A stretch of 64,000 bases of DNA from a virus, in the IMG/VR virus record IMGVR_UViG_3300045988_173694, one strand, 5' to 3'. The notes under the pieces are model-generated. The model was not told where the DNA came from. It saw nothing but the letters and a program-made list of their open reading frames with translations, and made no database searches. The translations under genes were made by a program, and so were the position numbers. The first letter of the stretch is position 1; every line of letters begins with the position of its first letter. Below are positions 3,443 to 61,477 of the stretch, in pieces.

Positions 3443-3967
3443 AGTACCAAAGTACTAACGTACCGAAGTACTACGGTGCAAAAGTACTAAAAAATATTCA
3501 TTCTCACAAATAATTACCCTATTATTTTCTAGATTTTAATCATATTTAATTATTAGTATTTGTAATAGTACTTTAGTACTAAGGTGCAAACGTACCAAAG
3601 TACGAAAGCACCGAGGAACGAATGAACCAAAGTATCAAGGTACATTTGTACGTTGGTACGAAGGTTTATTTGTACGTTAGTACCAAAGTGTATTTGCACG
3701 AAAGTTTATTAGTACCAAGGTATAAATGTACGTTAGTACAAAAGTACAAACGTACCAAAGTGCAAATGTACTCATTTATCTTCTCATTTATCTTTTCATT
3801 TATCCTCTCATTTATCTTATCATATATGAGAACAGATGTATTAAAGTACCTAAGTACAAAAGTGCAAAGGTGTATTTGTATCTTTGTACGAGAGTACTAA
3901 TGTATCAAAGTACAAAGGTGCAAACGTACAATAGTACGAAAGTACTAAAGTACGAATGCACCTTTGC
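3443..3967. repeat. Centromere-like array of GTACNAAN 8-mers
   Basis: Dozens of phased GTAC(N)AA(N) octamers upstream of parA, for example GTACAAAAGTACAAACGTACCAAAGTGCAAATGTAC. An internal 12-bp TCATTTATCTTC x4-5 block lies at 3771-3826. Confidence 0.8.
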
Positions 3968-3971
3968 TAGA

Positions 3972-4003
3972 GAACCAGCGATAGAATCGCTGGGAACGGA
4001 AGT
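3972..4003. repeat. SL element copy A (GGACCAGCGATAGAATCGCTGGGAACGGAAG family)
   Basis: Hairpin CCAGCGAT-AGAA-ATCGCTGG with conserved flanks, followed by TTTTTACC repeats to 4050. Confidence 0.85.
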
Positions 4004-4053
4004 GGGTTAAGGTTCTTTTTACCTTTTTACCTTTTTACTTTTTTACCTTTAAA

Positions 4054-5046: not shown

Positions 5047-5198
5047 AAGCCAAAAATTTTAAAGTTGTTATAGTTATATTTTAAAGCTCTATTTTCTTTT
5101 GCATCGGCGAAACTCAGTGATATTTCGCCGATGCTATAACGTAGAAATTCCTATTCCATCAGGTTCGGATCTTTATCGTATTTGCTGGCGGCTTCCTG

Positions 5199-9165: not shown

Positions 9166-9531
9166 TTATTGATTATTAGCTTTTGCCTCCAAAGCTATAA
9201 CAGGCGTTCCGTCTGTCTTATATAGCATTCTTACTCGTACCCATACATACCGCCCCTTCAGCCAGAAGGCTTCGTGTTCGTCCTGCCACTCTCCCGTATA
9301 TCCTCGGTTTTCCAAGGTATCGCGGGTCTTGTCGGTGATATTGTCTAGGTCGTAGGCTAACACGCCCATCGCCTTCAATTCGATGGCAACCGCAATTTTT
9401 ACCTCCTGCGGTGTTCGTGGATAGTCTTGATCTGAACAATCATGCACACCCATTAACTTGTCTATATTGATAATAGATGTAAGCAAGGATTGGATTTCTA
9501 CAAAATTCAAATTAAAGGAAATTGTTTTCAT
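9166..9531 (-). CDS. Hypothetical protein
   Basis: 121-aa ORF preceded by the L1 leader. Confidence 0.6.
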   Translation of the reverse strand: MKTISFNLNFVEIQSLLTSIINIDKLMGVHDCSDQDYPRTPQEVKIAVAIELKAMGVLAYDLDNITDKTRDTLENRGYTGEWQDEHEAFWLKGRYVWVRVRMLYKTDGTPVIALEAKANNQ

Positions 9532-9573: not shown

Positions 9574-9975
9574 TTACTTATTCTCTTTATAGATATTCTC
9601 CTGGTCCTCGATAGCCTTCTCCAGCGTCCAACCTACCTTGGGATAGATACCCGCGCCCAGACCAGTGTTGAAGTTAACGTAATAATTTTCGCCATCCTCG
9701 CGAACTGTAATCTTGGTACCATTATGGTCAATATCCTGTCCTTCGTTCTCGAACAACTCCCAGCCGGTAGAAACAAGAGAAAGAATGTGTTCGCCATCGG
9801 TGGCGAAATCCTCATCATCATAACTGATGCTTTCAGAATCACCAGTATATACCCATCCGTTCTCCTTGCAGATGCCACGAACCAACTCGCAGCAATCATC
9901 CTCCGGATTCTCCTCCTGGTAGGCTGTCAAAAATACCTTGAGATCATCTAATGTTTTAATGTCTTCTTTCTTCAT
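9574..9975 (-). CDS. Acidic hypothetical protein
   Basis: Track ORF 9574..10086 shortened to MKKEDIKTL. That ATG is directly preceded by an L1 leader, and the longer form would overlap the promoter at 10056-10087. Confidence 0.6.
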   Translation of the reverse strand: MKKEDIKTLDDLKVFLTAYQEENPEDDCCELVRGICKENGWVYTGDSESISYDDEDFATDGEHILSLVSTGWELFENEGQDIDHNGTKITVREDGENYYVNFNTGLGAGIYPKVGWTLEKAIEDQENIYKENK

Positions 9976-10012
9976 ACGTTCGTCGCTTAACCGTGATGCG
10001 CTAGGGCTAAAA
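9976..10012 (-). promoter_or_regulatory. L1 conserved 5' leader hairpin
   Basis: CATTTTAGCCCTAGCGCATCACGGTTAAGCGACGAACGT followed by ATG. Confidence 0.7.
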
Positions 10013-10410: not shown

Positions 10411-10971
10411 CTATGCTACATCAGCAGGGAAATAGTGTTTGTTGTAATACTCCTTGTATTCCTCCTCGGTCATACTATTCAAGGCAAGAAAACTCTTCCA
10501 GTTACCTTCCCGAACGTATTCCTCTTTCGTCTCCTCAAAGGTATGAGGAGCGATGTAACCGGCAGGATAAAAAGCCTCATGCCGCAATTCGATTGCATCG
10601 CCAATCAAACACCCTGATAGGTTCAGGTTCTCTTCGTCCGGAGTGTTCTCGCTCTCCTCCAAAAGCTTGTCGTAGTTCTCAATACTATGCTTAATAATCG
10701 TGCGGATGTCCTTTGCCCAAGAGCAGGTATCGTCCGACTTGATATTGCATTCCTGCAGTACCATATTCACCAGCTCGTCGATGCTCGCGCGGCTCATGAT
10801 ATATGCGTTGTGATAGAAATCGAAAGGGATAACGTGATCCAGCTTCCATCCCTTCTCCTCGTTAACAGATGGTCTGCCGTATGCCTTGCGGCTCTCTTCT
10901 GTCACCTGCACTTCGTTCTCTACATTCTCTATAACGTTCATACCGTTCTTATTATTATTCTTTGCTTCCAT
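10411..10971 (-). CDS. Acidic hypothetical protein
   Basis: 186-aa ORF preceded by an L2-like block. Confidence 0.6.
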   Translation of the reverse strand: MEAKNNNKNGMNVIENVENEVQVTEESRKAYGRPSVNEEKGWKLDHVIPFDFYHNAYIMSRASIDELVNMVLQECNIKSDDTCSWAKDIRTIIKHSIENYDKLLEESENTPDEENLNLSGCLIGDAIELRHEAFYPAGYIAPHTFEETKEEYVREGNWKSFLALNSMTEEEYKEYYNKHYFPADVA

Positions 10972-16895: not shown

Positions 16896-17267
16896 GGTGC
16901 AGCCTGGTATCTCGTGGGTGCGTTCCTCATCTCGGGGGTGCAGTCTGGTATCTCGTGGGTGTGTTCCTCATCTCGTGGGTGCAGCTTGGTATCTCGTGGG
17001 TGCGTTCCTCATCTCGTGGGTGCAGCCTGGTATCTCGTGGGTGCGTTCCTCATCTCGTGGGTGCAGTCTGGTATCTCGTGGGTGTGTTCCTCATCTAGTG
17101 GGTGCAGTCTGGTATCTCGTGGGTGCGTTCCTCATCTCGTGGGTGCAGCCTGGTATCTCGTGGGTGTGTTCCTCATCTCGTGGGTGCAGCCTGGTATCTC
17201 GTGGGTGTGTTCCTCATCTAGTGGGTGCAGTCTGGTATCTCGTGGGTGCAGCCTGGTATCTCGTGGA
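16896..17267. repeat. Tandem array, 41-bp unit x9 (two ~20.5-bp half-units each)
   Basis: Unit starts at 16896, 16937, 16978, 17019, 17060, 17101, 17142, 17183 and 17224. Half-units are GGTGCAGCCTGGTATCTCGTG and GGTGCGTTCCTCATCTCGTG. Confidence 0.95.
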
Positions 17268-17601
17268 GGCGGGGGCATATATCCAGACGGATCCAGGCAG
17301 GCGGGCAGGGGACAAACGTCTCAGGGCGGCGGGGGTCTCGCGGCTGAATGAAGGTTCTCGGGTTTTCCCAGAGATTGGGATTTCTCTAATTATCAATTAT
17401 TTATCTTCTCCTCTCGGGCGCTAAAAACAAAATGTTATCTCTTGTAAAACCTTAAATGCCAATAGTTTATAGGGGATTTAAAATTATTCAAAAATAATTT
17501 ATACTATCTGAAATCTTAAATAAAAAATACCTAAAATATATACTATCTCATCAAAAAATATATAGAAAAATAAATAAATATATAACTTTTAACTAGAAAT
17601 A

Positions 17602-17670: not shown

Positions 17671-18108
17671 ATGGAAGGAAATAATAAACCAAAATCGGAA
17701 ATCAATCTCCGTAAACTGATGCAGAAATTAGGCTTGGGCACAAATGCTTTTGCCGAGAAATGCGGCATGTCATCGCAATCGATGTCGCAGTTCCTCCGCA
17801 ACAAGTCGTTAACGACAAACACCATCTATCGCATAGCCACAGCTTTGGATATAGACCCTCGTGATATGTTCTTCCCGACAGAGGAGAAGAATGATCTTTT
17901 CTCGAATGCTGATAAGAAAGAGCATGAGGGCGAAACTCTGAATGCTACGCTGGGGGGCGATTTGCCGGAAGGTGTCACCTGCAGAGACGTGAAGTTTGTG
18001 CAGCAGGCAGAAGAAAATCAGCAGCAGATGATTCAGACTTCCACCTTCTGCCCTCACTGCGGCAAGAAAGTAAGAGTGGGAGTGGTACTACTATCGGGGG
18101 AATGTTGA
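17671..18108 (+). CDS. XRE-family HTH regulator with C-terminal zinc-ribbon-like CxxC
   Basis: INLRKLMQKLGLGTNAFAEKCGMSSQSMSQFLRNKSLTTNTIYRIATALDIDPRDMF is a typical HTH_3 domain. C-terminal CPHCGKKV. Confidence 0.75.
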   Translation: MEGNNKPKSEINLRKLMQKLGLGTNAFAEKCGMSSQSMSQFLRNKSLTTNTIYRIATALDIDPRDMFFPTEEKNDLFSNADKKEHEGETLNATLGGDLPEGVTCRDVKFVQQAEENQQQMIQTSTFCPHCGKKVRVGVVLLSGEC

Positions 18109-19075: not shown

Positions 19076-19182
19076 ATTGAGTGTTGAATGTTGAATGTTG
19101 AATGTTGAATGTTGAATTGCCTGACGGACTCAAGGGCGCTAGCCTAAATCAACACTCAACACTCAACATTCAACACTCAATT
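19076..19182. repeat. HAP copy 3
   Basis: Longest arms. Followed by a T-run on the plus strand, so probably a terminator for the lipoprotein gene. Confidence 0.9.
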
Positions 19183-22004: not shown

Positions 22005-22427
22005 TTATACGTTAGCGTTAATTAACTCAACTGCCTTTCTCGCAATTTCCTTGGCATGTATGCGCCATTCCTGCATCTCCTTATACTCTGCAAGATACTC
22101 CTCACACTTGCTTTCGTCCAAGTCAATAGATGCCACAGCACTATTCTGAGCCAGCTCGAAGTTAAGACGAATAGCATCCATCTTGTCGGAAGGGTACTTG
22201 TCTTCGATGATGGCAGACACGATAGCGTCATAGCTGCGGATGCCGCCACGAAGCTCGATGTATTCACCTTGACAAGAGTTCTCTAACATCATGTGCATAC
22301 CATCATTACTATCTTCTGATTTCTGCTCGATACGAACAAAATCATAAGCTACTTGAAGGTAGTTACCCGAAACTAAAACCTTCACATTATCCTTTGGCAA
22401 TTCTGCCATTGTGCATTGTATCTTCAT
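22005..22427 (-). CDS. Hypothetical protein downstream of the RT
   Basis: 140-aa ORF. Does not look like a four-helix-bundle Avd. Confidence 0.55.
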   Translation of the reverse strand: MKIQCTMAELPKDNVKVLVSGNYLQVAYDFVRIEQKSEDSNDGMHMMLENSCQGEYIELRGGIRSYDAIVSAIIEDKYPSDKMDAIRLNFELAQNSAVASIDLDESKCEEYLAEYKEMQEWRIHAKEIARKAVELINANV

Positions 22428-22447: not shown

Positions 22448-23929
22448 TTAATCCAAATCATAAGTATATCTGCCACCTTTGTCTACTCTAAAGAGGAAAG
22501 TATCATTAACCGGCAGCAGATTCTTCTCCCTTACTTCTTTGAGCTTCAGTCTTATGAGCTTCGAAGACGTACAGAACTTATATTCTGTTCCAGGAGCATC
22601 TTTCATTTCGTACAGAACCCAACATCGGCCGCTCTTGCCGTTCACTTCAACATCATCTTCAAAGTCTAATATATTGATGATGGAGTGATTCTGACACAAC
22701 ATCGTCTGATTATACTCTGGTACAGAAAATATACGTTTTCCGTTCTTGTCTACCGAGTATTTCGGTGATACAATTCCAATATCCTTAAAACTCATATTCT
22801 TTTTTCTTTTAAATTCGTTTTTATAATTTTCGGGGTAATCTCCAACAATCTTCTTCCAAAGATGCTTGCACTTGCCCCACCTTGCTATTCCCCAATACGC
22901 TCCGATAAGTTCCTGTCGCCTTTTACGGCTCTTAACCCTACCGAAAGACTTTGCCGCCTTAACCTTTGTCCGTCTGCGCATCCTTATGTTATTTCGAGAA
23001 TAGACGTAACCGACAAAATCTAGATTTCTGCCTTTCACGCCTTTCTCTTCGTCATGCAGCTCCGCTACGTGACCGCTAGCTTTCAGACAGAACCCATATT
23101 GATTGCACCAGTAATCCAATCTTCCGAGTAATCGAATAGCTTCTTCCTTTGTTTCAGCGAAGAAGGTAATATCGTCACAATGCCGATGATAGCCTTTTGC
23201 ATGCTCGATATGTACCATAGCGTAGTCTACCAAGCTCAATGCAAGATTGCCTAGCATCTGACCGATAGGATTACCGAGTGTTACACCTCGCCTGCATCCA
23301 AGGTACTTCATTCCACCCTTATCTGCCCAAATGCAGTACTTCTGCTTGCGCTCGTATTCTTCTATCATCAGAGGTTCAATCTCTACAGAATAATCGAGCA
23401 TGGTCTGCTCTATCAAGTCGATGAATAAATCATCGTCTATATACCGCCTGAGTATTATAAGCAGAACAGGATGAGGTATTGTCAGATAATACTTTCTGAG
23501 GTCTCCTTGCCCATAATAAGCCCATTTCGGATGCCTTCTGATAGCTCGTTGTGTTCTCAATGCACCGAATACTTGACCTTTACCTTTTCTGCCAGCACTC
23601 GAATCGTATATAAGCACTCGTTCAACTATCGGTTCGAGCACTATTTTGATAGCGTGAAAGAGAACATTCCAAGGGTCGAAGTGCATAGGGCATATCTTTC
23701 TTGCCTTATTCTCAGATACTATGTCAACCTCCTTATATTCCTTCTTAGGATAAATGCCGAGAATGAGCATATTCTGTATGCGGTCGATAATCTTATCCTT
23801 ATCTCGGATATATCTCCTAGCGAACCATGTGTTCTTATCATCTAACGCATTATAGGCATCATCACCGCCCTGTTCCAATGTTTCCCTCTTTACGAGTTCA
23901 TTCATCAGATTCTTTACCTTTGCTGTCAT
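22448..23929 (-). CDS. DGR reverse transcriptase (atypical, with C-terminal extension)
   Basis: RT motifs RKICPMHFDPWNVLFHAIKIVLEP, GDLRKYYLTIPH, GVTLGNPIGQMLGNLAL and HCDDITFF (where YxDD is expected). 220 nt downstream of the TR on the same strand. Confidence 0.85.
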   Translation of the reverse strand: MTAKVKNLMNELVKRETLEQGGDDAYNALDDKNTWFARRYIRDKDKIIDRIQNMLILGIYPKKEYKEVDIVSENKARKICPMHFDPWNVLFHAIKIVLEPIVERVLIYDSSAGRKGKGQVFGALRTQRAIRRHPKWAYYGQGDLRKYYLTIPHPVLLIILRRYIDDDLFIDLIEQTMLDYSVEIEPLMIEEYERKQKYCIWADKGGMKYLGCRRGVTLGNPIGQMLGNLALSLVDYAMVHIEHAKGYHRHCDDITFFAETKEEAIRLLGRLDYWCNQYGFCLKASGHVAELHDEEKGVKGRNLDFVGYVYSRNNIRMRRRTKVKAAKSFGRVKSRKRRQELIGAYWGIARWGKCKHLWKKIVGDYPENYKNEFKRKKNMSFKDIGIVSPKYSVDKNGKRIFSVPEYNQTMLCQNHSIINILDFEDDVEVNGKSGRCWVLYEMKDAPGTEYKFCTSSKLIRLKLKEVREKNLLPVNDTFLFRVDKGGRYTYDLD

Positions 23930-24150
23930 TTTGTTTTGTATTTAAAGCCTATTGCTTTTTTGCCGCTTTGCCCGTGACTTTGTTCTGCTCGTACAACTGA
24001 GCCGATTACTTCACCACGCTTGCTCTCCATTCAGCGAATACAGAGAGCCTTTCCGCTGTTATTTTCTGACTAGGCTATTGAAACCCACGTCAAGGTTTGA
24101 GAGACTCGCTTCTTCATATATCCATACCCCATAGATTATTGATTCAGCGA

Positions 24151-24260
24151 TTATAAATAAGTGAGACGCACACCGTAGTTCGTATTGCGATTGCCGAAGT
24201 CGTTATTCGAATTGACGTAGAACGAGCCGCAGTTAAGCGCATTCCTGGCGTTACCACCAA
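24151..24260 (-). repeat. DGR template repeat (TR)
   Basis: 110 bp, gapless match to 24411-24520. All 15 differences lie at TR adenines (coding-strand sense). Confidence 0.9.
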
Positions 24261-24360
24261 AGAGGAGCAAAATGTCTCTCGCCACCTTTTTTATTTATTT
24301 TTCTTTATTCTCTATTGACACCATTTTTGCTTCGGTGGAGCAAGCTCCACATCGGGTGTC

Positions 24361-24379
24361 GCAGACCCTACAGGTCTGC
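24361..24379. other. GC hairpin at the 3' end of the DGR target gene
   Basis: GCAGACC-CTACA-GGTCTGC, straddling the stop codon 24368-24370. Confidence 0.7.
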
Positions 24380-25642
24380 TCCGTTTACGTATGTCGGATT
24401 TCCGCAAAAAGCGAGACGCACACCGAAGCTCGGATTGCGACAGCCGAAGCCGTCACCCGAATTGACGCAGAACGAGCCGCAGAGAAGCGCATTCCAGGCG
24501 TCACCACCAAAGAGGAGCAACTGCCCAGTGCTGTTTGCCCATGAGTAGTCACAATAGTAGTTTGCGCTGTTCGAATTATCAACGTTGATATTCTTAGGCA
24601 TGATGTCGAAGAAGTCTCCGAGAACAAGGCTCAGTACACCGCCACTTCTAGTGTTACGTGTGAACGTGCGATAATCACCGACAGGATGACCAGTAAGCTC
24701 AGAAGCAGAAGGCATTCTGTTGCCTTTGTAGACGAAGGCTTCCGAACCAGTCTGACCGCTATTGTTGCTACTACCGAAGTAGATGCCTTGTATCATCTGC
24801 CAATACCATCCCCAAGGGTTCTCGATACCGAAGAGGTTCACATGGCATGCGTCAGCGTTTCCTGTTAACTCAGCCAAGCTGATTTTACCATTATTATCTC
24901 CAAGGCTCTTAGTAGCACCCGTTGTAAGACCATTAACCTTATCCCATAAATTAGCACTACCTGTAGGACCACAACCGAACTTAGCCTGTGAGTTGCTGTT
25001 TTCGCTCTCCCACAAAACGAGCATAGGAATAATCTTCAATGTCTCATAGTCGAGCAGACCGAAGTTCTTACCGTTGTTACGTGCATAAGTAAAGAAATCA
25101 CTGATTGATATATTGTTCGATACGCCAAGTCCACTACGGCTTACAAGCTTATTGTTAACAATACTAGCCATGTATGCGCCAAAGGTAGGATGGTCGATAT
25201 AATGCTCAGAGATAGGATAAGTAGAACCCCACAGGATATTGCATCCTGCTGACGCATCGTACTTCACAAGATAGTAGAGACGATGAGGGGTATGGAACAT
25301 GATATGACCCTTAGTCTCATCAACGGTTGTGCCATCCTCGAATACAGCAGAGTTGCTACGAGACAATTTAGCCATTCTTCCATCGTTAGTAAGCAAATAT
25401 CGACCGAGTGATGATTTGAACTCATTCCACTTTGTCTGATTACCGCAAACTCCCCATTGCGTATCGTCTGTCTCTTTAAGATATGTTCCCCAAGCAATAA
25501 GCGAGAGGTCAAGCTGGTTAGTACTGATAGAGTTAGCCAAGTCAGACAGCTTGATACGTCTGAGAGAGCCGCCAACCTCTATCAATAAGGTATCACCCTT
25601 AACCATTGATGATACCGATGCTACAGTTGCAAGATTTTTCAT
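24368..25642 (-). CDS. DGR variable target protein (putative receptor-binding tail protein)
   Basis: The VR encodes the C-terminal FGGDAWNALLCGSFCVNSGDGFGCRNPSFGVRLA, which resembles the C-type-lectin-fold ends of DGR targets. Located in the fibre module. Confidence 0.85.
   Translation of the reverse strand: MKNLATVASVSSMVKGDTLLIEVGGSLRRIKLSDLANSISTNQLDLSLIAWGTYLKETDDTQWGVCGNQTKWNEFKSSLGRYLLTNDGRMAKLSRSNSAVFEDGTTVDETKGHIMFHTPHRLYYLVKYDASAGCNILWGSTYPISEHYIDHPTFGAYMASIVNNKLVSRSGLGVSNNISISDFFTYARNNGKNFGLLDYETLKIIPMLVLWESENSNSQAKFGCGPTGSANLWDKVNGLTTGATKSLGDNNGKISLAELTGNADACHVNLFGIENPWGWYWQMIQGIYFGSSNNSGQTGSEAFVYKGNRMPSASELTGHPVGDYRTFTRNTRSGGVLSLVLGDFFDIMPKNINVDNSNSANYYCDYSWANSTGQLLLFGGDAWNALLCGSFCVNSGDGFGCRNPSFGVRLAFCGNPTYVNGADL
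24411..24520 (-). repeat. DGR variable repeat (VR)
   Basis: See TR. Ends 40 nt before the stop codon. Confidence 0.9.
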
Positions 25643-25669: not shown

Positions 25670-26875
25670 TCAGTTACCAATTAAGTAATCTCCGTTCTCA
25701 TCAACGAGAGGTTCAGAGCCATCGGAGAAGAAATCGAAGGTCGGCTTATACTCAGCATCACATCTTATCTCCAGCTCATCATCAGCAGTCTCACCTAGAC
25801 CAGTATCAGAGATATTGAAGATTGCCGTATCTCCCTCTTGCCATTGCCTTGTTGTCGTAGCACCGCCATTCTCGGCAACAGTACTCCAATTAAGTTTCAG
25901 CACGTTGGCAGGGCATTCCACGATATTGCCCTCAGAATTGACAAGAGCAACCTGCTGTCGGTTATCAACTCCAGGAGATATATCTACGTTCTGTCCTGCC
26001 GATACGCTGTATCTCGGGTATGTTCGGGAAACAGAGATTTGCTTGTTGCATACTTCCGTATCGCCAACAAAAGCCCTGATAACGTATGATGCAGAATTAA
26101 TCAGTCTAAGGTCAAGTGTGATGTAGCTATTGCTGATTGCTACCACCTCATTCATTCCTACGCTAATCTGAGCCATCGAAGAACCGCTCATCTTGTAGAG
26201 CTTGATAGTGTAGCCAGAAGTAATGCTCTTTGCACCCTTATAGATGTGGAGAGGAATCTTTCTGAGATAAGCCTTCTCGTCAATGCAAGCGTTCCTTACA
26301 GCATCAGATGCTGCTATCATTCCATGTGCCACCTTGTAGTCGTACAGAAGCAACTTGTCTGTCATTGGGTTGTAGACGATAGTCTCATCATCATCCAATG
26401 CCATAGAGTAGGCATCATCGCTCTTAGCAACCGTGTTCAGAACCACTTCATCGGTAAGGATAGGAACATTGACGTTGGTTCGATAGTCTACGATTTCAGC
26501 CTTGAATCTCAATGCAAATCGTTCTGCTACTGCCACGTTACGAAAGATGGTGAGGTCTCCACGGGTAGCACCATCCTGATTGATTGAGTAATCTGATGCT
26601 GCCCACACCTTGCTTATATCCTTGCCGTTAACGAGCCATACCATATTGGCAAGTACCGCATTGGATTGCTGATACTTCCATGTACCATCGCTTGCGTAAG
26701 CTGTAATGTCTGGGTGCAAGACACAAGGTGTGTTGGCTCGGTTCGGCTCGTAGCTGCTGTTAACCACGTTATATACTTGCGTGGTAGGAGAACCACCCGA
26801 TACGCACACGATTGATTGTGCTGTATTGAGTAGAGCGAAAGACCTTCTAATTCTTACTGCGCTGTTTGTTGCCAT
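25670..26875 (-). CDS. Putative tail fibre/baseplate-associated structural protein
   Basis: 401-aa beta-rich ORF in the unidirectional tail module. Confidence 0.5.
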   Translation of the reverse strand: MATNSAVRIRRSFALLNTAQSIVCVSGGSPTTQVYNVVNSSYEPNRANTPCVLHPDITAYASDGTWKYQQSNAVLANMVWLVNGKDISKVWAASDYSINQDGATRGDLTIFRNVAVAERFALRFKAEIVDYRTNVNVPILTDEVVLNTVAKSDDAYSMALDDDETIVYNPMTDKLLLYDYKVAHGMIAASDAVRNACIDEKAYLRKIPLHIYKGAKSITSGYTIKLYKMSGSSMAQISVGMNEVVAISNSYITLDLRLINSASYVIRAFVGDTEVCNKQISVSRTYPRYSVSAGQNVDISPGVDNRQQVALVNSEGNIVECPANVLKLNWSTVAENGGATTTRQWQEGDTAIFNISDTGLGETADDELEIRCDAEYKPTFDFFSDGSEPLVDENGDYLIGN

Positions 26876-30247: not shown

Positions 30248-30269
30248 AAATGTTGAATGGGATTGTAAA

Positions 30270-30353
30270 ATGTTGAGTGTTGAATGTTGAATGTTGAATT
30301 AGCCTAACGGACTCAACGGCGCTAGCCTAATTCAACATTTAACATTCAACATT
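30270..30353. repeat. HAP copy 4
   Basis: Arms plus core AGCCTAACGGACTCAACGGCGCTAGCCTAA. Confidence 0.9.
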
Positions 30354-33008: not shown

Positions 33009-33033
33009 AAAGCTTTTGCCCTTACAGGGCGTA
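33009..33033. repeat. THE partial copy (first hairpin only)
   Basis: AAAGCTTTTGCCCTTACAGGGCGTA, overlapping the stop codon of ORF 33022..35823. Confidence 0.75.
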
Positions 33034-35823
33034 TACCGTTAACTCTACTTCGCCCATGCCCGTCTTGGCATCGATGGTGGTATTCACCCTGTCTATGAGG
33101 CATTTCATACCGCCTATGTTCCACCATTCCTGCCAGTGGTTCGGTATATCGGCCACTTGCGCTACGGTAGTGGTACATCTTACCATAAACTTCTTTCTGT
33201 TCAGAAGAAAATAGGCGTAGGGGAGGACGAAGGTATCAAAGAGACCACGGGAGCGAATCTTCTTAACTACCTTACCGTTTTTATCTACCTCATCTTTATC
33301 ACAAAGTACTACATTTTGATACTTCGGATCACTTAACCACGATGGTTCCTTGAAAGCACGTATCTTGAGCGAGAATTTTTCACCTTCGCCCGTTCCTTCC
33401 TGAATACCATTATAGTCAAATTCATTGCCCATCATATCCAGTGAATCGCATGCCAGGGCATACTTACCAGATACGGTACGCCATTTGGACGTTCCGAAGT
33501 GGTCGTAATTATAATCGTAAGACTGGCGGGTAGCATCGCTACCACCACCTCGCATCAAAGCAACCGCATATCCCCAGCGTGAATCATCCTGCAACGGAGA
33601 ATTGCCATCATCGGTGCTCGACGGGTCGTAGCTTTCTACGAGTGATAGTGTCTGCTGCATGTAGAAATCACAGAAAGCAGTAGAGATAGTCTGATTGATA
33701 ATCTGCTCCACAAACTCATGCTCCATATCCTCATCTACATAAGCACAGAGGATAGGCTGACTATCGGTGATGGTTACACCATATTTCTTGCCGTTGTAGG
33801 AGTCGATTGCCTCGTGAGAGCCATAGGCAGCTTCTATCTCCTTGAAATAGTTCACATCATTGAACGGAACAGGAGTAAAATCTACCGAAATATCGTGAAT
33901 AAAATCTTCGTTCTCATTGCTGCAATCTCCATATTCTACACCCTTAAACTGACCTACCTCAAAGAGTACCGGTTTCAAGTCGGCTGTCGTGGTTGCATCG
34001 CCATTTACCTTTACTCGGTAAGCATTGCCCGTCTTGCGGTCGATATAACAATGCTTATCTCCACTACTCAGATTATGGAAGAAATCGATGTAGTCGAGAT
34101 TATAGACGGTGGAGTTATCGCCACTATCAGGCGCAGGGTAATCGATGTAATCATAATCGGTAGAATAACCCATGTTCTTGTTTCTACGGCTATCGAGTAC
34201 ATTCTGCCGCTGATCTTTTGCATCACCTTCTGCAGAATAGCGCATACGCACACCTGTAATCTTCTCGGTCATCGGAGTCATAGAATGGATATTGGCATGA
34301 AATGTTCTTGCCTCATTACCGCTCTTGCGCAGCACATCACGAGTAAGATAAGCTGTCACCTTCTTCTGCTCGTAATCATACGAAAACTTGATACCGAAGG
34401 CACTCTCAAGAGATGAGATTACGGTGCTCACACTCTCGTCAGGGAAGTTGCCGCTATTGGCTACCATATTGAGCACGTTTGCCTGAACATTGAACTTGCT
34501 GATTTTTGCCTCAATGCTAATACCGGTAACTTTGCCTCCATCATCACGAACCTCACCAACCTGTATATGCTCGGTGGTGCCTTCAGGTGTGTGGAGTGTT
34601 AATTCCTGCACGTCCTTATTCTCTGCCTTCACGATGTTTATCTTTCCACCGCAACCACGGCTTTCCAGCCATGAATTGATATGCTCCTGACTTTGGAAAT
34701 AACCCGTCTTGATTTCGCCAGCTTTCTTCTTCTTGGCGATAACTTCCGCATCGGTTTCGCTGTAATAAGTACCGTGATGAGGGTGCTGAATGGTATCGTA
34801 GCTGCATACGGTCGTGAAGAAGCAGAGATGCTTCAAATCCTCTATCTCCATCAATGCCTTCTTGTCGAAAGTTACGCCCAGATAGGCAAAAAGGCAATCG
34901 AGGAAATAGAGCACATAGAAGCAGATACCCGACTGCGGACGTTTTGCATCCAATACCCAATAAGGATAAAGGTCTTCGTTCGTCCAGGTACAATCCTTCG
35001 TGCTGATTACACCACTATCTGTTTTTCCGTCATCATCCAAGCCATGATGCTTATAGCAGATGCGGGCATTGCAATAGGTAGCGGCGCGCCCTGCTCCATC
35101 AGTCTCACCATAAGCGGCAGCTGTATTGATATAGTTACCGTTGCTGGCGATAGCTGGCTCATTCACCTTATGGTTCTGAGGATAGGAGCGCTCAGACAGA
35201 ATCTTAGCATCACCTTTTTTATGCCGGGTATCGGTAGAAGTCCATTCTACACAGTTTGCAGGATAAGAGAAACCCAAGGCTTGCGGCTCCAATACCTTAC
35301 TTACGCTTACATGGGCTGCCCTAATTTCGTGAGTTTCGGTCTTATCGTCCTTATGTTTGCCTCCAGTAACAAAAACATTTACTTTCACCACAGGATCACT
35401 CTCAATATCCACCCTTACATTACCGATTTTCTCACCAATAATAATCTGGTCCTTTACCTGGATATCACGACACTGCAGGTCGCTGATAAGCTCGCTGAAA
35501 CTCTGCGTGCTGGCATCGATGTTCATAGAGAGAGAATTGGTTATCTCCTCACCATCCTGCATTACCAGGGTTCCGCTGCGGAAAGGCAATCCATCGGCAT
35601 GAATACGGGTAGGAAGATGCTCCATGTTCACGGCTTTTACCGCTGCATGAACATCTTCGATGTTCTTTACCAGCCATCGGTTGCCGTCTAGCGGAATAGA
35701 GAAAGGATAGGAGAACATTTCCGTATCGTTGAACACGGGGTTCTGGTCCTCAATATCTATTGAGAAATCATCGGGCAAAGCTACCGGCTTGTCGTTTATC
35801 AATATCGTAAGATGTGAGTTCAT
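33022..35823 (-). CDS. Large baseplate/tail-associated structural protein
   Basis: 933-aa ORF. ATGA overlap with the upstream ORF. Confidence 0.55.
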   Translation of the reverse strand: MNSHLTILINDKPVALPDDFSIDIEDQNPVFNDTEMFSYPFSIPLDGNRWLVKNIEDVHAAVKAVNMEHLPTRIHADGLPFRSGTLVMQDGEEITNSLSMNIDASTQSFSELISDLQCRDIQVKDQIIIGEKIGNVRVDIESDPVVKVNVFVTGGKHKDDKTETHEIRAAHVSVSKVLEPQALGFSYPANCVEWTSTDTRHKKGDAKILSERSYPQNHKVNEPAIASNGNYINTAAAYGETDGAGRAATYCNARICYKHHGLDDDGKTDSGVISTKDCTWTNEDLYPYWVLDAKRPQSGICFYVLYFLDCLFAYLGVTFDKKALMEIEDLKHLCFFTTVCSYDTIQHPHHGTYYSETDAEVIAKKKKAGEIKTGYFQSQEHINSWLESRGCGGKINIVKAENKDVQELTLHTPEGTTEHIQVGEVRDDGGKVTGISIEAKISKFNVQANVLNMVANSGNFPDESVSTVISSLESAFGIKFSYDYEQKKVTAYLTRDVLRKSGNEARTFHANIHSMTPMTEKITGVRMRYSAEGDAKDQRQNVLDSRRNKNMGYSTDYDYIDYPAPDSGDNSTVYNLDYIDFFHNLSSGDKHCYIDRKTGNAYRVKVNGDATTTADLKPVLFEVGQFKGVEYGDCSNENEDFIHDISVDFTPVPFNDVNYFKEIEAAYGSHEAIDSYNGKKYGVTITDSQPILCAYVDEDMEHEFVEQIINQTISTAFCDFYMQQTLSLVESYDPSSTDDGNSPLQDDSRWGYAVALMRGGGSDATRQSYDYNYDHFGTSKWRTVSGKYALACDSLDMMGNEFDYNGIQEGTGEGEKFSLKIRAFKEPSWLSDPKYQNVVLCDKDEVDKNGKVVKKIRSRGLFDTFVLPYAYFLLNRKKFMVRCTTTVAQVADIPNHWQEWWNIGGMKCLIDRVNTTIDAKTGMGEVELTVYAL

Positions 35824-36539: not shown

Positions 36540-36630
36540 ATGTTGAATGTTGAGTGTTGAATGTTAAATTAGCCTAGCGGACGCAAGGGCGTATGCCTAA
36601 TTCAACATTCAACACTCAACATTCAACATT
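36540..36630. repeat. HAP copy 6
   Basis: Arms plus core AGCCTAGCGGACGCAAGGGCGTATGCCTAA. Confidence 0.9.
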
Positions 36631-37800: not shown

Positions 37801-37890
37801 AATGTTGATTGTTGAATGTTGAATGTTGAATTGCCTCACGGACTCGATGGCGTACGCCTAATTCAACATTCAACACTCAACATTCAACAC
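37801..37890. repeat. HAP copy 7
   Basis: Arms plus core TTGCCTCACGGACTCGATGGCGTACGCCTAA. Confidence 0.9.
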
Positions 37891-39010: not shown

Positions 39011-39134
39011 AATGTTGAGTGTTGAATGTTGAATGTTTATTTTAATGTTGATTGTTGAATGTTGAATGTTGAATTGCCTCACGGACTCGATGGCGTATGC
39101 CTAATTCAACATTCAACACTCAAAATTCAACATT
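39011..39134. repeat. HAP copy 8 (with an extra left arm)
   Basis: Additional arm at 39011-39037, then the full element. Confidence 0.9.
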
Positions 39135-40953
39135 ATTCCTGCCCCTGTTTCGCCACTCCGGTCTTCGAGTTATCGAGGGTAGTCAATACCTCTCTATCTA
39201 TCTGCCATACCAGATGCTCGTCCCAATCGTTGAAGCGGCTCAAAACTTCCAGTGGGCGTATCATCAACTGCTGCAATGGAGCAAACTGGATTTGCTTCAC
39301 CAGGAAACGCTCTCTCAGGTCGGTACCGCCCGATGATGCTGTATCGCCAGGAGTATTACCGATGAGCTTTGCATCAAGACCCATGGCAAAGAAGATGATG
39401 CTGCTTATTTCCTGCAACTCGGTTTTGTCGGCATTCGCCTGATCATTTGCCTTGGTTTCGATTTCCACGATTTCCCAAGCTTTGTGCTCTTTCCCATCGC
39501 TGCCCGTGAAGGCAGAAGAGATGAGCGCCTGACCTGCATTATCGGGGTTAGAGAGCCAGGTGTTGATAGAGGTAAAGATTTCGTTCTGAATCTCGCCCTG
39601 GGTTTTCTTTTTCTTCTCACCCTGCTGCTGATAGAGCCTGCTGATATAGTCCTGATGGATATAGATAACTCTACCGATGATGTTGCTGTTGCGCTTTCGG
39701 GTAAGGCGGTCATCTACGATGGTGAAGGCATACTCGAAGATGCTGCCGGCAAAGATAGAGTGCCAAAGGGCATCGGCATAGTAGGGGCCGCCGAAATCTC
39801 TTGGCGACATGATGAAGCGGGTAGGGCGTTTCTTGCGGCTTACGTTCTTCTGACGTGCCTCGCGTATCTTGCGCTGCAAATCCTTCACGGCTGATGTGGT
39901 AGGGAGATAAGGGATAGCGGCTATCTTGCGGTCTTCCTCTTTCTGCACACCGACGTATTGGGTTGGGTCGAGCCATTGGTTGCTGACGTAGGCATAGTTG
40001 ATGCGGTAGTTTTCGTCCATGCGCTCCAGTCGGGTAGTGAAGATGCTGCGGTGCTTCAGACCGATCACCTTCGGAGTCCACTGTGCAGTAGGAACGGCCT
40101 TGCCGTTCTCGTCGAGGGAACGCTGATTGAGCTGGAGCTCTACAAAGCATTGTGACATCAGAGCCATATCTCCTGCCAGGTCGAGGAAGGTCTGCATAAG
40201 ATCGTTGTTTTCCAGGAAATCACGAAGCTGGGCATTGGTTTCTTCCCATTTGCGGAGAGCTTCTTTCAGAGATTTCATCTCCTCGCTTTCCCCTTCATCG
40301 GAGGATGAGGAAACCTGCGATGAAATCGCAGGGAACGGTGACTCCTCCTGCTGAGACTGCCCGTTCTGGTTCTGCTGCTCGTTCTGGCGCTTGGCTTCGG
40401 CGGCTGCCTCTTCCTTGGCTTTCAGGTCAGCTATCTGACCTCGGAGCAGGACTCCTGCGCTCTCGTAAGGGATATATTTTTCTGTGATGTTACCGCCAAC
40501 GTACTGGGTGTAGTGATACTTGGCTGCGGGACCGCGACCTACCAGTATCTTCTTGATGTAATCTACTCCTGCTGCGGTAAAAGGCGACATGCGGGAGAGC
40601 AGCCAGATAAGATTTGGCAGTCTGTTGGCCATACCCCATTCCATAAAGCCTAAGCCTTCGGTACCTACGCCTTTTGGTTTGCCCAGGTTCTCGCCGCCAC
40701 TTGATGCAAAGATAGAGGAGACTTGCTGACGTGCTGCAGAACCGCTTGCGTTGCCACCGCTTGCCGACATACCGGCTGTGGTAAGGAGCATGCTGTGGAC
40801 GTAGTCGTTCCAGGAGAAGACTTTACCGCCGCCATTTTTAAGCGGTGTAAAGGCATCCGGGCGAACGGCTACATAGCCTGCATCTTTCAGTTCCTCACTA
40901 CGATTTTGGAGCTGCTGCAGGTTGGTTACTCTGTTTTTGTTTTTGCTTGCCAT
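39133..40953 (-). CDS. Large virion protein, possibly portal
   Basis: 606 aa. The size and an internal acidic/Q-rich insert are compatible with a portal, but no diagnostic motif was recognised by eye. Confidence 0.35.
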   Translation of the reverse strand: MASKNKNRVTNLQQLQNRSEELKDAGYVAVRPDAFTPLKNGGGKVFSWNDYVHSMLLTTAGMSASGGNASGSAARQQVSSIFASSGGENLGKPKGVGTEGLGFMEWGMANRLPNLIWLLSRMSPFTAAGVDYIKKILVGRGPAAKYHYTQYVGGNITEKYIPYESAGVLLRGQIADLKAKEEAAAEAKRQNEQQNQNGQSQQEESPFPAISSQVSSSSDEGESEEMKSLKEALRKWEETNAQLRDFLENNDLMQTFLDLAGDMALMSQCFVELQLNQRSLDENGKAVPTAQWTPKVIGLKHRSIFTTRLERMDENYRINYAYVSNQWLDPTQYVGVQKEEDRKIAAIPYLPTTSAVKDLQRKIREARQKNVSRKKRPTRFIMSPRDFGGPYYADALWHSIFAGSIFEYAFTIVDDRLTRKRNSNIIGRVIYIHQDYISRLYQQQGEKKKKTQGEIQNEIFTSINTWLSNPDNAGQALISSAFTGSDGKEHKAWEIVEIETKANDQANADKTELQEISSIIFFAMGLDAKLIGNTPGDTASSGGTDLRERFLVKQIQFAPLQQLMIRPLEVLSRFNDWDEHLVWQIDREVLTTLDNSKTGVAKQGQE

Positions 40954-42524: not shown

Positions 42525-42712
42525 TGCCAAAATGGATATTGGGGTTTATCTTCTTCCAAAGGTTCAAAAACCTCTAAGTCTGCACCGCAATTCGGACAAT
42601 GATAAAGATACTTATAACCATTATCTCCATACTCTTCATTACCAACGAAATTAAGAGATGCAGAGCACTGAGTGCATTTCGGCATCTTATTGCGAATCTT
42701 TTTCTTGCTCAT
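42521..42712 (-). CDS. Zinc-ribbon protein
   Basis: 63 aa. CTQC...CPNC. Confidence 0.5.
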   Translation of the reverse strand: MSKKKIRNKMPKCTQCSASLNFVGNEEYGDNGYKYLYHCPNCGADLEVFEPLEEDKPQYPFWQ

Positions 42713-44010
42713 TTCTTCTCCAAAAACTGATGATACATACTTTCCAACTTAGAATTTGCGAACTTGCCGTTCTCTTTCCAGCCATTGAACAGCGGCATGA
42801 TGATGTCCTCGTGAGCAGAAGAAATCTTCTCCTGCAGTTCTTTTGGAGTGCAATTCCAAAGATGCGCCTCTTCTATATAAAGAGTGAGGATGGCTTTCAA
42901 TGCCATTGCATTCTCGTGGCTCGGCTCTATCTCGAACTGATGGAAGACGCAGGTGTCTTTATCGTTTGCCTGGAGGAACTTGCTGACGGCTTCATCTTTC
43001 AGGAAGAACCTTGTATCTACTTCTTCCTGCAACACATCTTCCAGCTTTCTTTTCAGCGGAACTGGGTCGGGAAACTGGTAATCGAAGGCTACATCTTTTC
43101 TCATTGAGAGGCAGAAAACTCGGTCGCGGTTCTGCGGAACACCATAGTCTTTGGCATTGAGTCTTGCCCATCGGCTTACGTAGCCGAGAGAAGAAAGTTT
43201 ATCAAGCCACTTCAGAAAATCTGGCATAAACTTTTCGCTTACCAGGGCTGCCACATTCTCTTGAAGCAGATACTTCGGATGCAACACTTCCACGGCATCG
43301 GCTACTCGCCACAATAATGCCGAACGGGTATCGGAACCTTCCTTCAAGCCCATCTGCTTGCCGGCTTGCGATATATCCTGACAAGGTGAAGAATAGGTAA
43401 AAAGGTCGATTTCTTGCCCCCCCACATTATTCTTTACTTGCTGCCAGTCGATTTTAGTTATATCGCCCAAGGCTTTGTCAGCAAACTGCGGAAAGATGAG
43501 GTTGTGCATCTGACAGGCATACTTATCTATATCGCTCCAGCCTACGCACGTCCAGCGGAAATCAGGGTGCTGCTGGGCGAGAACATCGGCTGCCATCAAC
43601 TGCGAGTCGTAACCGGAGAAGGTGGTGAGGATAAGTTTCTCACCATGGTTCTTATCTACCGGATAGGTAGGGAGTTGGTCTTCTGGGAAGAAATCGGCAA
43701 AGAATGAGGTCTGTGCCTCACGCTTTGGCTCTTTCGGATACCAGAGTTGCTGATAGATGGCTGCGAGCACATCTACCACGATAGAATTTCCAGCTTGCTT
43801 GTATTGCTGACTAGCCGATACCGCCATATCCTCTGCCTTTCCCTTGCTCTTATAGCCAGCTACTCGCTCGGCTGCCTGGGCATTGGTACTCTGCATCATG
43901 CGGATAACGTCATCACGCACACCCATCAATCTGAAACACTCGAAAGGTGTCAGCTTTCGGATGGCATAAGACTTAATGGTCTTATCCTTGAAATTGAATT
44001 TTGTTATCAT
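42709..44010 (-). CDS. Circularly permuted DNA cytosine-5 methyltransferase
   Basis: Motif order IX (RKLTPFECFRLMG), X (GNSIVV), then I (LTTFSGYDS), IV (SSPCQDIS), VI (LLQENV), VIII (QNRDRVF), then about 130 aa of C-terminus. Confidence 0.75.
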   Translation of the reverse strand: MITKFNFKDKTIKSYAIRKLTPFECFRLMGVRDDVIRMMQSTNAQAAERVAGYKSKGKAEDMAVSASQQYKQAGNSIVVDVLAAIYQQLWYPKEPKREAQTSFFADFFPEDQLPTYPVDKNHGEKLILTTFSGYDSQLMAADVLAQQHPDFRWTCVGWSDIDKYACQMHNLIFPQFADKALGDITKIDWQQVKNNVGGQEIDLFTYSSPCQDISQAGKQMGLKEGSDTRSALLWRVADAVEVLHPKYLLQENVAALVSEKFMPDFLKWLDKLSSLGYVSRWARLNAKDYGVPQNRDRVFCLSMRKDVAFDYQFPDPVPLKRKLEDVLQEEVDTRFFLKDEAVSKFLQANDKDTCVFHQFEIEPSHENAMALKAILTLYIEEAHLWNCTPKELQEKISSAHEDIIMPLFNGWKENGKFANSKLESMYHQFLEKK

Positions 44011-45833: not shown

Positions 45834-45917
45834 AATGTTGATTGTTGAATGTTGAATGTTGAGTTGCCTCACGGACTCAAGGGCGCTAGCCTAATTCAAC
45901 ACTCAACATTCAACATT
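45834..45917. repeat. HAP copy 9
   Basis: Arms plus core TTGCCTCACGGACTCAAGGGCGCTAGCCTAA. Confidence 0.9.
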
Positions 45918-46561: not shown

Positions 46562-47116
46562 TTAAAAACTTATTTTCTTTCCGCCATTGGCGATGAGACT
46601 GCCGTAACTGATGGCATTGAGGCGACGGAGCCAGCCTGCCTCGAAAACCTTCTGACTAGGGTGCTTGGCGATGATGCCGGCGATGTATTGCTTGCGGCGT
46701 GCCTTGATGCGCTCGAAGAACTGCTTGGGGTTCTGACTATTGAGGGCAGCGAGGGTTTTCTTGCCTACGATGCCATCGGCTGTTACGCCTAACATGGCTT
46801 GCACGATGGTGATGCCAGGGGTACCGCTGCTCCATACCCAATCTACCAGGATGTTGGCGATGCTCTGGTCTTTGATACCGTCGGCTTTCCATCGGTTCCA
46901 GTAGCAACGGCGAAGGATGGAGATAGCATCGGCTTTTGTGATAAGCTTCACGTCCTTTGCGTCTATGCGGCCATCATTATTCTTGTCGTAGCCTTGGGTC
47001 TGCCAGGTTTTGATGGTTACACCCATGTTGGTAGGACCGCCCTTGTCATTGGGGTGGTTGACGTAACCTCCCTCGAAAGAGAGAATAAAATCTGCAAGAG
47101 GTTGAATCTTTGCCAT
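46562..47116 (-). CDS. Endolysin, GH108 lysozyme plus peptidoglycan-binding domain
   Basis: ILSFEGGYVNHPNDKGGPTNMGVT is the GH108 N-terminal signature. The C-terminal LGVTADGIVGKKTLAAL is PG_binding_3-like. Confidence 0.8.
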   Translation of the reverse strand: MAKIQPLADFILSFEGGYVNHPNDKGGPTNMGVTIKTWQTQGYDKNNDGRIDAKDVKLITKADAISILRRCYWNRWKADGIKDQSIANILVDWVWSSGTPGITIVQAMLGVTADGIVGKKTLAALNSQNPKQFFERIKARRKQYIAGIIAKHPSQKVFEAGWLRRLNAISYGSLIANGGKKISF

Positions 47117-56059: not shown

Positions 56060-56167
56060 AATGTTGAATGGTTTGATGAATGTTGAATGTTGAGTGTTGA
56101 ATGTTGAATTAGGCTAGCGCCCTTGAGTCCGTGAGGCAACTCAAAATTCAACATTCAACACTCAAAA
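56060..56167. repeat. HAP copy 11 (core in inverted orientation)
   Basis: The core reads AGGCTAGCGCCCTTGAGTCCGTGAGGCAA, the reverse complement of the core in copies 3 and 9. Confidence 0.9.
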
Positions 56168-57155: not shown

Positions 57156-57242
57156 ATGTTAAGTGTTGAATGTTGAATGTTGAATTGCCTGACGGACTCG
57201 ATGGCGTATGCCTAATTCAACACTCAACATTCAACACTCAAA
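57156..57242. repeat. HAP copy 12
   Basis: Arms plus core TTGCCTGACGGACTCGATGGCGTATGCCTAA. Confidence 0.9.
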
Positions 57243-61403: not shown

Positions 61404-61442
61404 TAGCCTAATTCAACATTCAACACTAAACATTCAACACTA
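61404..61442. repeat. HAP half-element (right arm), copy 13
   Basis: AGCCTAATTCAACATTCAACACTAAACATTCAACACT. Confidence 0.8.
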
Positions 61443-61477
61443 AAAAAGGCTGCCTCGCTTCACAGCGAAACAGCCTC
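61443..61477 (-). terminator. Intrinsic terminator after the tape-measure-like gene
   Basis: Minus strand GAGGCTGTTTCGCTGTGAAGCGAGGCAGCC followed by TTTTTT. Confidence 0.65.

Follow-up and report, generated by a model that had tools for sequence, protein, structure and literature searches.

The 64,000-nucleotide (nt) stretch of viral DNA analysed here, IMG/VR record IMGVR_UViG_3300045988_173694 (hereafter the window), very probably carries a working diversity-generating retroelement (DGR), by which a tail-collar fibre is varied at its receptor-binding tip. The analysis supports the presence of each testable DGR element in a cassette on the minus strand. We observed an adenine-specific relation between a template repeat (TR) and a variable repeat (VR), model-based fold matches of the reverse transcriptase (RT) and of the target protein, hypervariation at the adenine columns among related genomes, transfer of marker mutations from TR to VR, and a covarying spacer RNA together with a hairpin. 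The components of the cassette are as follows, with lengths in amino acids (aa) for proteins and open reading frames (ORFs).

24368 to 25642, minus strand: target (variable-protein) gene, 424 aa, tail-collar-fibre-like, with a predicted C-terminal variable domain of the C-type-lectin (CLec) type.
24406 to 24520, minus strand: VR, 115 nt, encoding LLLFGGDAWNALLCGSFCVNSGDGFGCRNPSFGVRLAF, with substituted sites at 24408-24502.
24361 to 24379, minus strand: GC-rich hairpin GCAGACC-CTACA-GGTCTGC, with a 7-bp stem and a 5-nt loop.
24335 to 24350, minus strand: second hairpin GTGGAGC-TT-GCTCCAC, which separates target gene and TR, resembles a terminator and has no T-run.
24156 to 24270, minus strand: TR, 115 nt; of its 25 adenines, 24 fall within the mutagenised zone.
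23967 to 24111, minus strand: conserved structured RNA within the 226-nt TR-RT spacer, scoring 108.8 bits (E 2e-27) with covariance model R1.
22796 to 23929, minus strand: RT core, aa 1-378, comprising fingers, palm, thumb and a basic linker, with the motifs HCDD and LGNPIGQ.
22448 to 22795, minus strand: C-terminal RT module, aa 379-493 plus the stop codon, beginning at a conserved Met-Ser-Phe.
22005 to 22427, minus strand: small acidic ORF, 140 aa, isoelectric point (pI) 4.66, 20 nt downstream of the RT.

The TR and VR form a direct repeat of two 115-nt copies whose starts are offset by 250 nt. Over a 110-nt core (TR 24161-24270, VR 24411-24520) they align without gaps and differ at 15 positions, every one of which is a plus-strand T of the TR, that is, an A on the minus, coding strand. 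Read on the plus strand from TR to VR, nine of these differences are T to C, four are T to A and two are T to G; nine other TR Ts are identical in the VR, and no G, C or A of the core is changed. When the alignment is extended to 115 nt, a 16th mismatch appears at 24158/24408, again at a TR T. The probability that 16 of 16 mismatches would land by chance on 24 Ts among 111 positions is ∼9e-14. An original prediction, made from the sequence of the window, had described this pattern (110 bp, no gaps, 15 mismatches all at TR Ts and nine Ts unchanged) with the TR at 24151-24260, an offset of 260. At that offset identity to 24411-24520 is at chance level; the true partner is 24161-24270. Since the gapless alignment lies at offset 250, the earlier coordinates represent a 10-nt slip, and once they were corrected the described pattern was reproduced in full. 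Mismatches at non-adenine positions, which the prediction had named as evidence that would speak against it, were sought by realignment and none was found, 16 of 16 falling at TR adenines. Its peptide readings of the VR and TR were both exact, and the ORFs that it had placed at 24368-25642 and 22448-23929 on the minus strand are both present. It had also put the RT downstream on the same strand, which is correct, at a distance given as 220 nt; the gap between TR and RT is 226 nt (23930-24155).

The variable codons had been described as AAY/ANN; the TR adenines are spread over 15 codons, of which 9 are AAY. Substitution at the TR adenines never yields a stop codon, and ∼1.2e14 protein variants can be reached. 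No second VR-like copy of the TR was found in the 64-kb window when both strands were scanned with the full-length TR and with 40-mers ignoring adenine positions.

The RT ORF is intact and full length (493 aa). It matches the PHROG reverse-transcriptase family phrog_1423 (E 5.7e-43), and its AlphaFold model has a predicted local distance difference test (pLDDT) score of 85.8. The closest solved structure by sequence is the DGR RT of Bordetella phage BPP-1 (8ub7, E 4e-6), and this is also the closest fold to the model (8ub7, and 8ubd too; Foldseek E 1.7e-14, template-modelling (TM) score 0.86 on the matched structure). RTs of group II introns, retrons and defence systems rank below it by both sequence and fold. 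In an alignment of 26 RT homologues, K75, R77, D143, G219, Q224 and D252 are invariant and D253 is nearly so. Together these results support placing the enzyme with the DGR RTs. An insertion of ∼37 aa lies between motifs 3 and 4 (23300-23400, aa ∼178-214, with a helix at 185-198); it is common to the window RT and its close family and is absent from Hankyphage-like RTs and from the BPP-1 enzyme (bRT).

Scanning IMG/VR with the RT alignment yielded 79 loci. Comparison of each locus with itself revealed the same VR-TR-spacer-RT layout in 66 of them: a VR, an interval of 125-300 nt and a TR of 111-124 nt, followed by the RT after a spacer of about 190-230 nt, with mismatches almost exclusively at TR adenines. 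Thirteen loci belong to phages closely related to that of the window, with RT identities of 82-94%, and in these the TRs are nearly identical while every VR is different. For 12 genomes, the window and 11 close relatives, we aligned the cassette and counted the variable columns in each part.

Rest of the target gene: 19% of columns variable.
RT gene: 16%.
TR-RT spacer: 8%.
TR: 1.7% (2/115).
VR, at TR-adenine columns: 24/25.
VR, at other columns: 4/90 (4%).

The difference between adenine and other columns of the VR is highly significant (Fisher p 1.4e-19). The non-adenine VR columns are thus more conserved than the surrounding gene, as predicted by repeated overwriting from a conserved template. 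Hypervariability at the TR-adenine sites, which the original prediction had proposed to look for in reads, is therefore evident here in a comparison between related genomes. In addition, non-adenine changes private to one TR are mirrored in the cognate VR: G77T in L003, T36A in L004, and changes at columns 12, 15, 39 and 105 in L012. Information therefore flowed from TR to VR after these mutations arose.

Two further features of the relatives were recorded. Four loci of distant relatives carry an additional, remote VR, placed ∼5 kb downstream of the RT (L059 at 9328-9419, L062 at 9781-9894, L067 at 9893-10006 and L068 at 10672-10785), in three of them on the opposite strand, indicating two target genes per TR. 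In two others the RT frame is interrupted: at L037 (5001-6454) it is broken into 267 and 170 aa, and in the cultured Phocaeicola phage PV4-TP1 (L085, PQ571302, 2734-4277) the RT is annotated as three ORFs. These broken frames could reflect either decay of the DGR or assembly errors.

The VR corresponds to residues 375-412 of the 424-aa target. The target matches phrog_5302, 'tail protein' (E 7.5e-36), and has more than 393 homologues, and no Pfam domain, including CLec, FGE and DUF1566, was found in it by sequence. Its AlphaFold2 model (pLDDT 80.5) was used for the comparison with C-type-lectin-fold DGR variable proteins that had been suggested as a check, and the best folds in the PDB are indeed two such proteins, TaqVP (5vf4, E 2.6e-7) and Mtd (1yu0, E 0.018). 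Among viral folds the model comes closest to tail collar fibre proteins and crAss-like tail fibre proteins (TM score on the query 0.65-0.74), and matches in BFVD include proteins labelled as Treponema variable protein and as sulfatase-modifying-factor-like. The model thus supports a receptor-binding tail-fibre protein in which the VR would lie in a fold of the C-type-lectin type. The neighbour upstream of the target (25670-26875) likewise matches a PHROG tail protein. The claim that the target lies in a tail-fibre module is reasonable but was overstated, as its basis is the PHROG and structure labels of the target and of one neighbour only. Searching GenBank phages for near-identical DNA returned a single match, an unannotated faecal contig with the target gene at 90%.

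The GC-rich hairpin that had been noticed at the target gene's 3′ end is present at 24361-24379. It lies 27 nt downstream of the VR and is kept in relatives with compensatory stems (GCAGACC/GGTCTGC, GCTGACC/GGTCAGC and GCAAACC/GGTTTGC), making it a candidate target-recognition hairpin or cruciform. The stop codon of the target, TAG (24368-24370), sits in its loop, and in relatives, too, a TAG or TAA lies within the loop of the hairpin that follows the VR. A hairpin at the place of the second one (24335-24350) also occurs in relatives, and in L030 it is followed by TTTT. Both repeat copies share an adenine-free, GC-rich 3′ stretch, GGTGTGCGTCTC, and homology stops 6-7 nt beyond it. The last variable adenine of the repeat is column 109, and at column 113 all TRs have A where all VRs have T (14/14 genomes). 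Judged from the sequences, this difference is a candidate for the distinction between the initiation of mutagenic homing site (IMH) and its TR counterpart (IMH*).

The spacer between TR and RT contains conserved blocks (GAGTC..AACCTTG; CA.AA.AT...G.GGAAAGG-stem-CAAGC; AAAG....GGGC). Covariance model R1, built from seven sequences, finds exactly one match per close-family locus, always between TR and RT, and, in more distant loci (among them that of the isolate PV4-TP1), weaker matches at this position. Compensatory changes occur in 12 of the 17 modelled pairs. In an alignment that had been fitted to the model, 91.5% of cells pair, and the share falls to 24-41% if the partner is shifted by 1-3 columns. 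Rfam gave no relevant family, either for the whole window at the gathering threshold or for 23850-24600 at E≤1. By its position, this RNA is presumably the counterpart of the BPP-1 'Sp' region, which primes cDNA (complementary DNA) synthesis.

Taken with the literature on BPP-1 and Hankyphage, on which the transcription, spacer-RNA priming and homing steps are modelled, a cycle of the following kind may be proposed. The minus strand would be transcribed across the TR (24270-24156) and then the structured spacer RNA (24155-23930). The 493-aa RT would bind the TR-spacer RNA and copy the TR into cDNA, placing random nucleotides opposite the 24 template adenines, and the cDNA would then take the place of the VR (24520-24406) at the tail-fibre gene's 3′ end. 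Both the 3′ end of the repeat, which lacks A, and the conserved hairpin 27 nt downstream may guide homing. The outcome would be up to ∼1e14 variants of a 38-residue surface on a receptor-binding domain with the C-type-lectin fold, with no stop codon reachable, and such variants might change or broaden recognition of hosts or ligands. Binding specificity would then be the trait under selection, and, by analogy, the C-terminal RT module, the acidic ORF or both might take the role of Avd.

Searches of the RT extension and of small ORFs within ∼5 kb against Pfam, NCBIfam and PHROGs gave no Avd homologue, and there is no ORF between VR and RT. The cassette had been called complete; this holds for an Avd-less DGR and in no other sense. 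Avd is missing from about a quarter of DGRs (PMC5758913), so that it is not strictly defining for them. In the AlphaFold model, the C-terminal ∼115 aa of the RT form a separate alpha/beta domain behind a disordered basic linker. This module matches only phrog_19665 (E 5.4e-5), a family of ∼105-aa proteins without assigned function; it has no Pfam match, and its profile gave nothing significant against PDB sequences. In three relatives (L080, L082 and L086) the RT ends at 365-373 aa and the module is a separate ORF of 114-115 aa directly behind it, which starts at the same Met-Ser-Phe, either 3 nt past the RT stop codon or overlapping it. In an exhaustive phmmer search the module turned up almost exclusively as part of RTs of this type or as a protein of ∼115-128 aa; the few remaining matches were fragments or multi-stretch matches to long proteins. 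The split RT and module ORFs look translationally coupled. Joining of the two by programmed frameshifting was considered and rejected as improbable. The RT frame of L082 does contain an A-AAA-AAG heptamer (5099-5122), shortly ahead of the stop codon by a few codons and just upstream of the overlapping module start, but a -1 slip meets a stop codon, and the module ORF is in the +1 frame.

In every close-family locus the acidic ORF lies directly behind the RT or the module ORF, even though the gene after it varies, and its most divergent detectable homologues are also behind an RT and module ORF. It has no match in Pfam, PHROG or NCBIfam, and phmmer, hmmsearch and hhalign detected no homology between it and the 158-167-aa acidic ORFs of Hankyphage-like loci. 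It may serve as a second accessory factor or simply as a chaperone of the fibre.

Since it is strictly linked to the RT, and since fusion and fission are typical of physically interacting partners, the fused-or-split module is the best candidate for how this lineage manages without Avd. That the module, with or without the acidic ORF, is a true Avd substitute is a proposal we make tentatively, at somewhat less than an even chance. The broader version, that a large DGR lineage of Bacteroidales phages (this group, the LoVEphage/PV4-TP1-like phages and Hankyphage) replaced Avd by a system based on the phrog_19665 module, is possible to a similar degree and no more firmly held. The acidic ORF and the lineage-specific structured spacer RNA may act together with the module in such a system. 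Nearly balanced, and in our estimate only slightly short of even, is the alternative that the DGR works but that the acidic ORF is a fibre chaperone and the RT extension a decoration, Avd being replaced by host factors or RNA. A small acidic protein encoded downstream of a fibre gene is typically a chaperone. The lack of detectable homology between the acidic ORF of the window and those of Hankyphage-like loci, the lack of a functional label on phrog_19665, and the TR/VR pairs found beside crAss-like RT relatives that have no extension (PMC7290462) all fit this alternative. Against it, the order RT-module-acidic ORF is kept while the next genes change (from 390 aa to 1457 aa, or to 74 aa plus 344 aa), and the module occurs only fused to, or directly behind, RTs of this kind.

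Several observations weigh against a working DGR in the window. The catalytic box of the RT is HCDD rather than the hallmark YxDD; motif 4 is LGNPIGQ, with Ser replaced by Gly, rather than [ILV]GxxxSQ; and the RVT_1 score of 28.5 bits falls just short of the Pfam cut-off of 29.6. Avd, not found here, is essential in the only well-studied DGR system. The proposed IMH/IMH* distinction amounts, as far as the sequences go, to a mere short divergence at the 3′ end. No promoter could be assigned, since a scan for sigma-70 promoters and terminators gave no site upstream of the TR, a scan that is uninformative for the presumed Bacteroidota host. Finally, the case for activity in this very phage comes from its relatives, and from genome comparison rather than reads.

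If the RT motifs, the RVT_1 score and the lack of Avd are read as signs of decay, the element would be a fossil, once active but with a now dead RT, and the TR/VR differences would be relics; the broken RT ORFs of L037 and PV4-TP1 would fit such a history. We consider this improbable. The RT ORF of the window is full length, and the HRHCDD sequence is kept in relatives down to ∼40% identity. The family consensus of motif 4 is IGxxISQ, and most relatives have SQ, but relatives with the same residues as the window have diversified VRs, so that the HCDD and GQ deviations are not an obvious loss of function. Moreover, genomes that have diverged by 6-7% in the RT differ in the VR at nearly every adenine site while the TR is fixed, and recent point mutations of the TR have already been copied into VRs. 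These observations together indicate activity on the time-scale of strain divergence, as expected of a working DGR. Ordinary duplication, or recombination between paralogous fibre tips, with divergence by the usual mutation and selection, beside an unrelated RT (of a retron, group II intron or defence system) would accommodate the weak matches of the RT to group II intron, Drt and retron models and the common hypervariability of receptor-binding tips through recombination, but is extremely improbable given mismatches at one template base exclusively (P ∼1e-13), a TR copy that is non-coding and nearly invariant, the same pattern in 66 of 79 loci with a homologous RT, a DGR RT as best fold, and no match to intron RNA or retron msr/msd in Rfam.

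Outside the cassette, the heptamer AATGTTG (or its reverse complement) forms short tandem arrays of 4-9 copies in at least 14 places, apparently mostly intergenic, including the following.

7-38, 68-105, 19077-19180, 30249-30299, 36600-36630 and 37801-37889: AATGTTG arrays.
39011-39074, 45834-45862, 53442-53470, 56077-56109, 57215-57241 and 61415-61444: further AATGTTG arrays.

They look like a dispersed regulatory or transcription-boundary signal of the phage. At 16896-17249 a 41-nt unit is repeated in 8.6 tandem copies (94% matches), overlapping the plus-strand ORF 16897-17424 and adjoining a gene for a helix-turn-helix regulator of the Cro/C1 type (17671-18108). Iteron-like 22-nt repeats and GTAC-rich repeats occur at 1529-1670 and 3631-4050, near a gene matching a replication-initiation PHROG (110-1393), and this region is probably the replication origin. 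The few recognisable genes elsewhere (42709-44010, 46562-47116 and 52834-54456) include those for a DNA methyltransferase, an endolysin and a head maturation protease. Of the large ORFs in the window, most (such as 33022-35823 and 39133-40953) have no match among PHROG families, and the window contains no tRNA.

DGRs in gut phages are well known, and the element described here adds no new principle. It documents programmed diversification of receptor binding in an abundant, almost unannotated group of human-gut phages. The mechanism of Avd-independent mutagenic retrohoming has been flagged as an open question (PMC5758913), for which this group offers three separable candidates: the fused-or-split RT module, the linked acidic ORF, and a covarying spacer RNA of compact size. 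A compact system of a single-protein RT and an RNA could also interest builders of DGR-based tools for targeted mutagenesis.

Among named phages in GenBank, tblastn placed the RTs of PV4-TP1 and 'LoVEphage' (34%) and of Hankyphage p00 (25%) nearest to that of the window. The DGR of Hankyphage (Bacteroides phage p00, BK010646) has been shown experimentally to diversify its tail fibre in culture (PMC12135933). Its cassette has the same order, target-VR-TR-RT-acidic ORF, and similar spacing: a C-terminal VR of 116 nt, an interval of 254 nt, a TR of 116 nt and a spacer of 208 nt before the RT. The two RTs are homologous over their full length (BLASTP E 2e-28, aa 4-490, identity about 24-25%), and the Hankyphage enzyme carries the C-terminal module too (hhalign probability 99.3%, E 5e-20). 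In both systems the target is a tail-fibre protein with the CLec fold, as modelled in the case of the window, and in both the hosts are Bacteroidales of the human gut, presumably so for the window phage. The acidic ORF behind the Hankyphage RT has 161 aa and a pI of 5.0, and homology to the 140-aa ORF of the window was not detected. The systems differ in that the Hankyphage RT has YCDD and SQ and lacks the ∼37-aa insertion, whereas the window RT has HCDD, GQ and the insertion; in the length of the target, 424 aa in the window and more than 2200 aa in Hankyphage; in the spacer RNA, Hankyphage-like loci scoring weakly with the window model; and in the phage backbone, which in the window group consists of largely unannotatable contigs of 45-105 kb. 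Since Hankyphage shares the order, the spacing, the module and the position of the acidic ORF, the window element is an Avd-less DGR of Bacteroidales phages of a kind already known.

Within the survey of Wu et al., the cassette corresponds to Architecture A1, with target, TR and RT on one strand and no avd, HRDC or MSL genes. According to that survey, accessory genes are missing from ∼29% of DGRs ('Architecture A', in which the core order is TR-RT), and avd is absent from RT 'Lineage 3'; ∼20% of the DGR RTs are extended at the C-terminus by as much as 150 aa, in which no motif is recognisable (PMC5758913). The same survey describes CH1, an acidic accessory protein of 160-169 aa found only in Avd-less DGRs (PMC5758913). 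Compared by description only, CH1 (Architecture E) has a pI of ∼4.7 at 160-169 aa, and the window ORF a pI of 4.66 at 140 aa. The crAss-like phage LMMB carries a cassette of target gene (TG), VR, TR and RT without avd that targets a tail-collar fibre protein (PMC7290462). Its DGR and the Lineage 3, A1, CLec3 DGRs of Wu et al. share with the window the order TG-VR-TR-RT, described for those DGRs as TG-VR(IMH)-TR(IMH*)-RT, the absence of avd, and a 'tail-collar fibre protein' target with a C-terminal VR of ∼35-38 residues. The fold of the window target matches the crAss-like tail fibre proteins cr55_1, cr7_1 and cr85_1, and the end of its VR, ...GVRLA, resembles the SRL[CA] end described for CLec3. 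In contrast, crAss-like RTs align to the window RT only at aa ∼52-365, with ∼24-26% identity, and lack the C-terminal module.

Compared to the DGR prototype of BPP-1 (mtd-avd-TR-brt), the window shares adenine-specific transfer from TR to VR, the RT fold, a receptor-binding target with the CLec fold, structured RNA located downstream of the TR, and a GC hairpin following the VR. R74 and I181 of bRT, residues that tune adenine mutagenesis, correspond to R77 and L218 of the window RT and are conserved in kind (PMC7826257). BPP-1 differs in having Avd, and the window RT is 165 aa longer; the window has the order TR-RT with nothing between VR and TR; its hairpin, unlike that of BPP-1, lies 27 nt past the VR with the stop codon inside; and the BPP-1 spacer RNA has no detectable sequence similarity to that of the window. 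TaqVP (5vf4) and Mtd (1yu0) resemble the window target in having the VR at the C-terminal end of a CLec-type domain; identity is 12-16%, global TM scores are 0.3-0.45, and the N-terminal halves are unlike.

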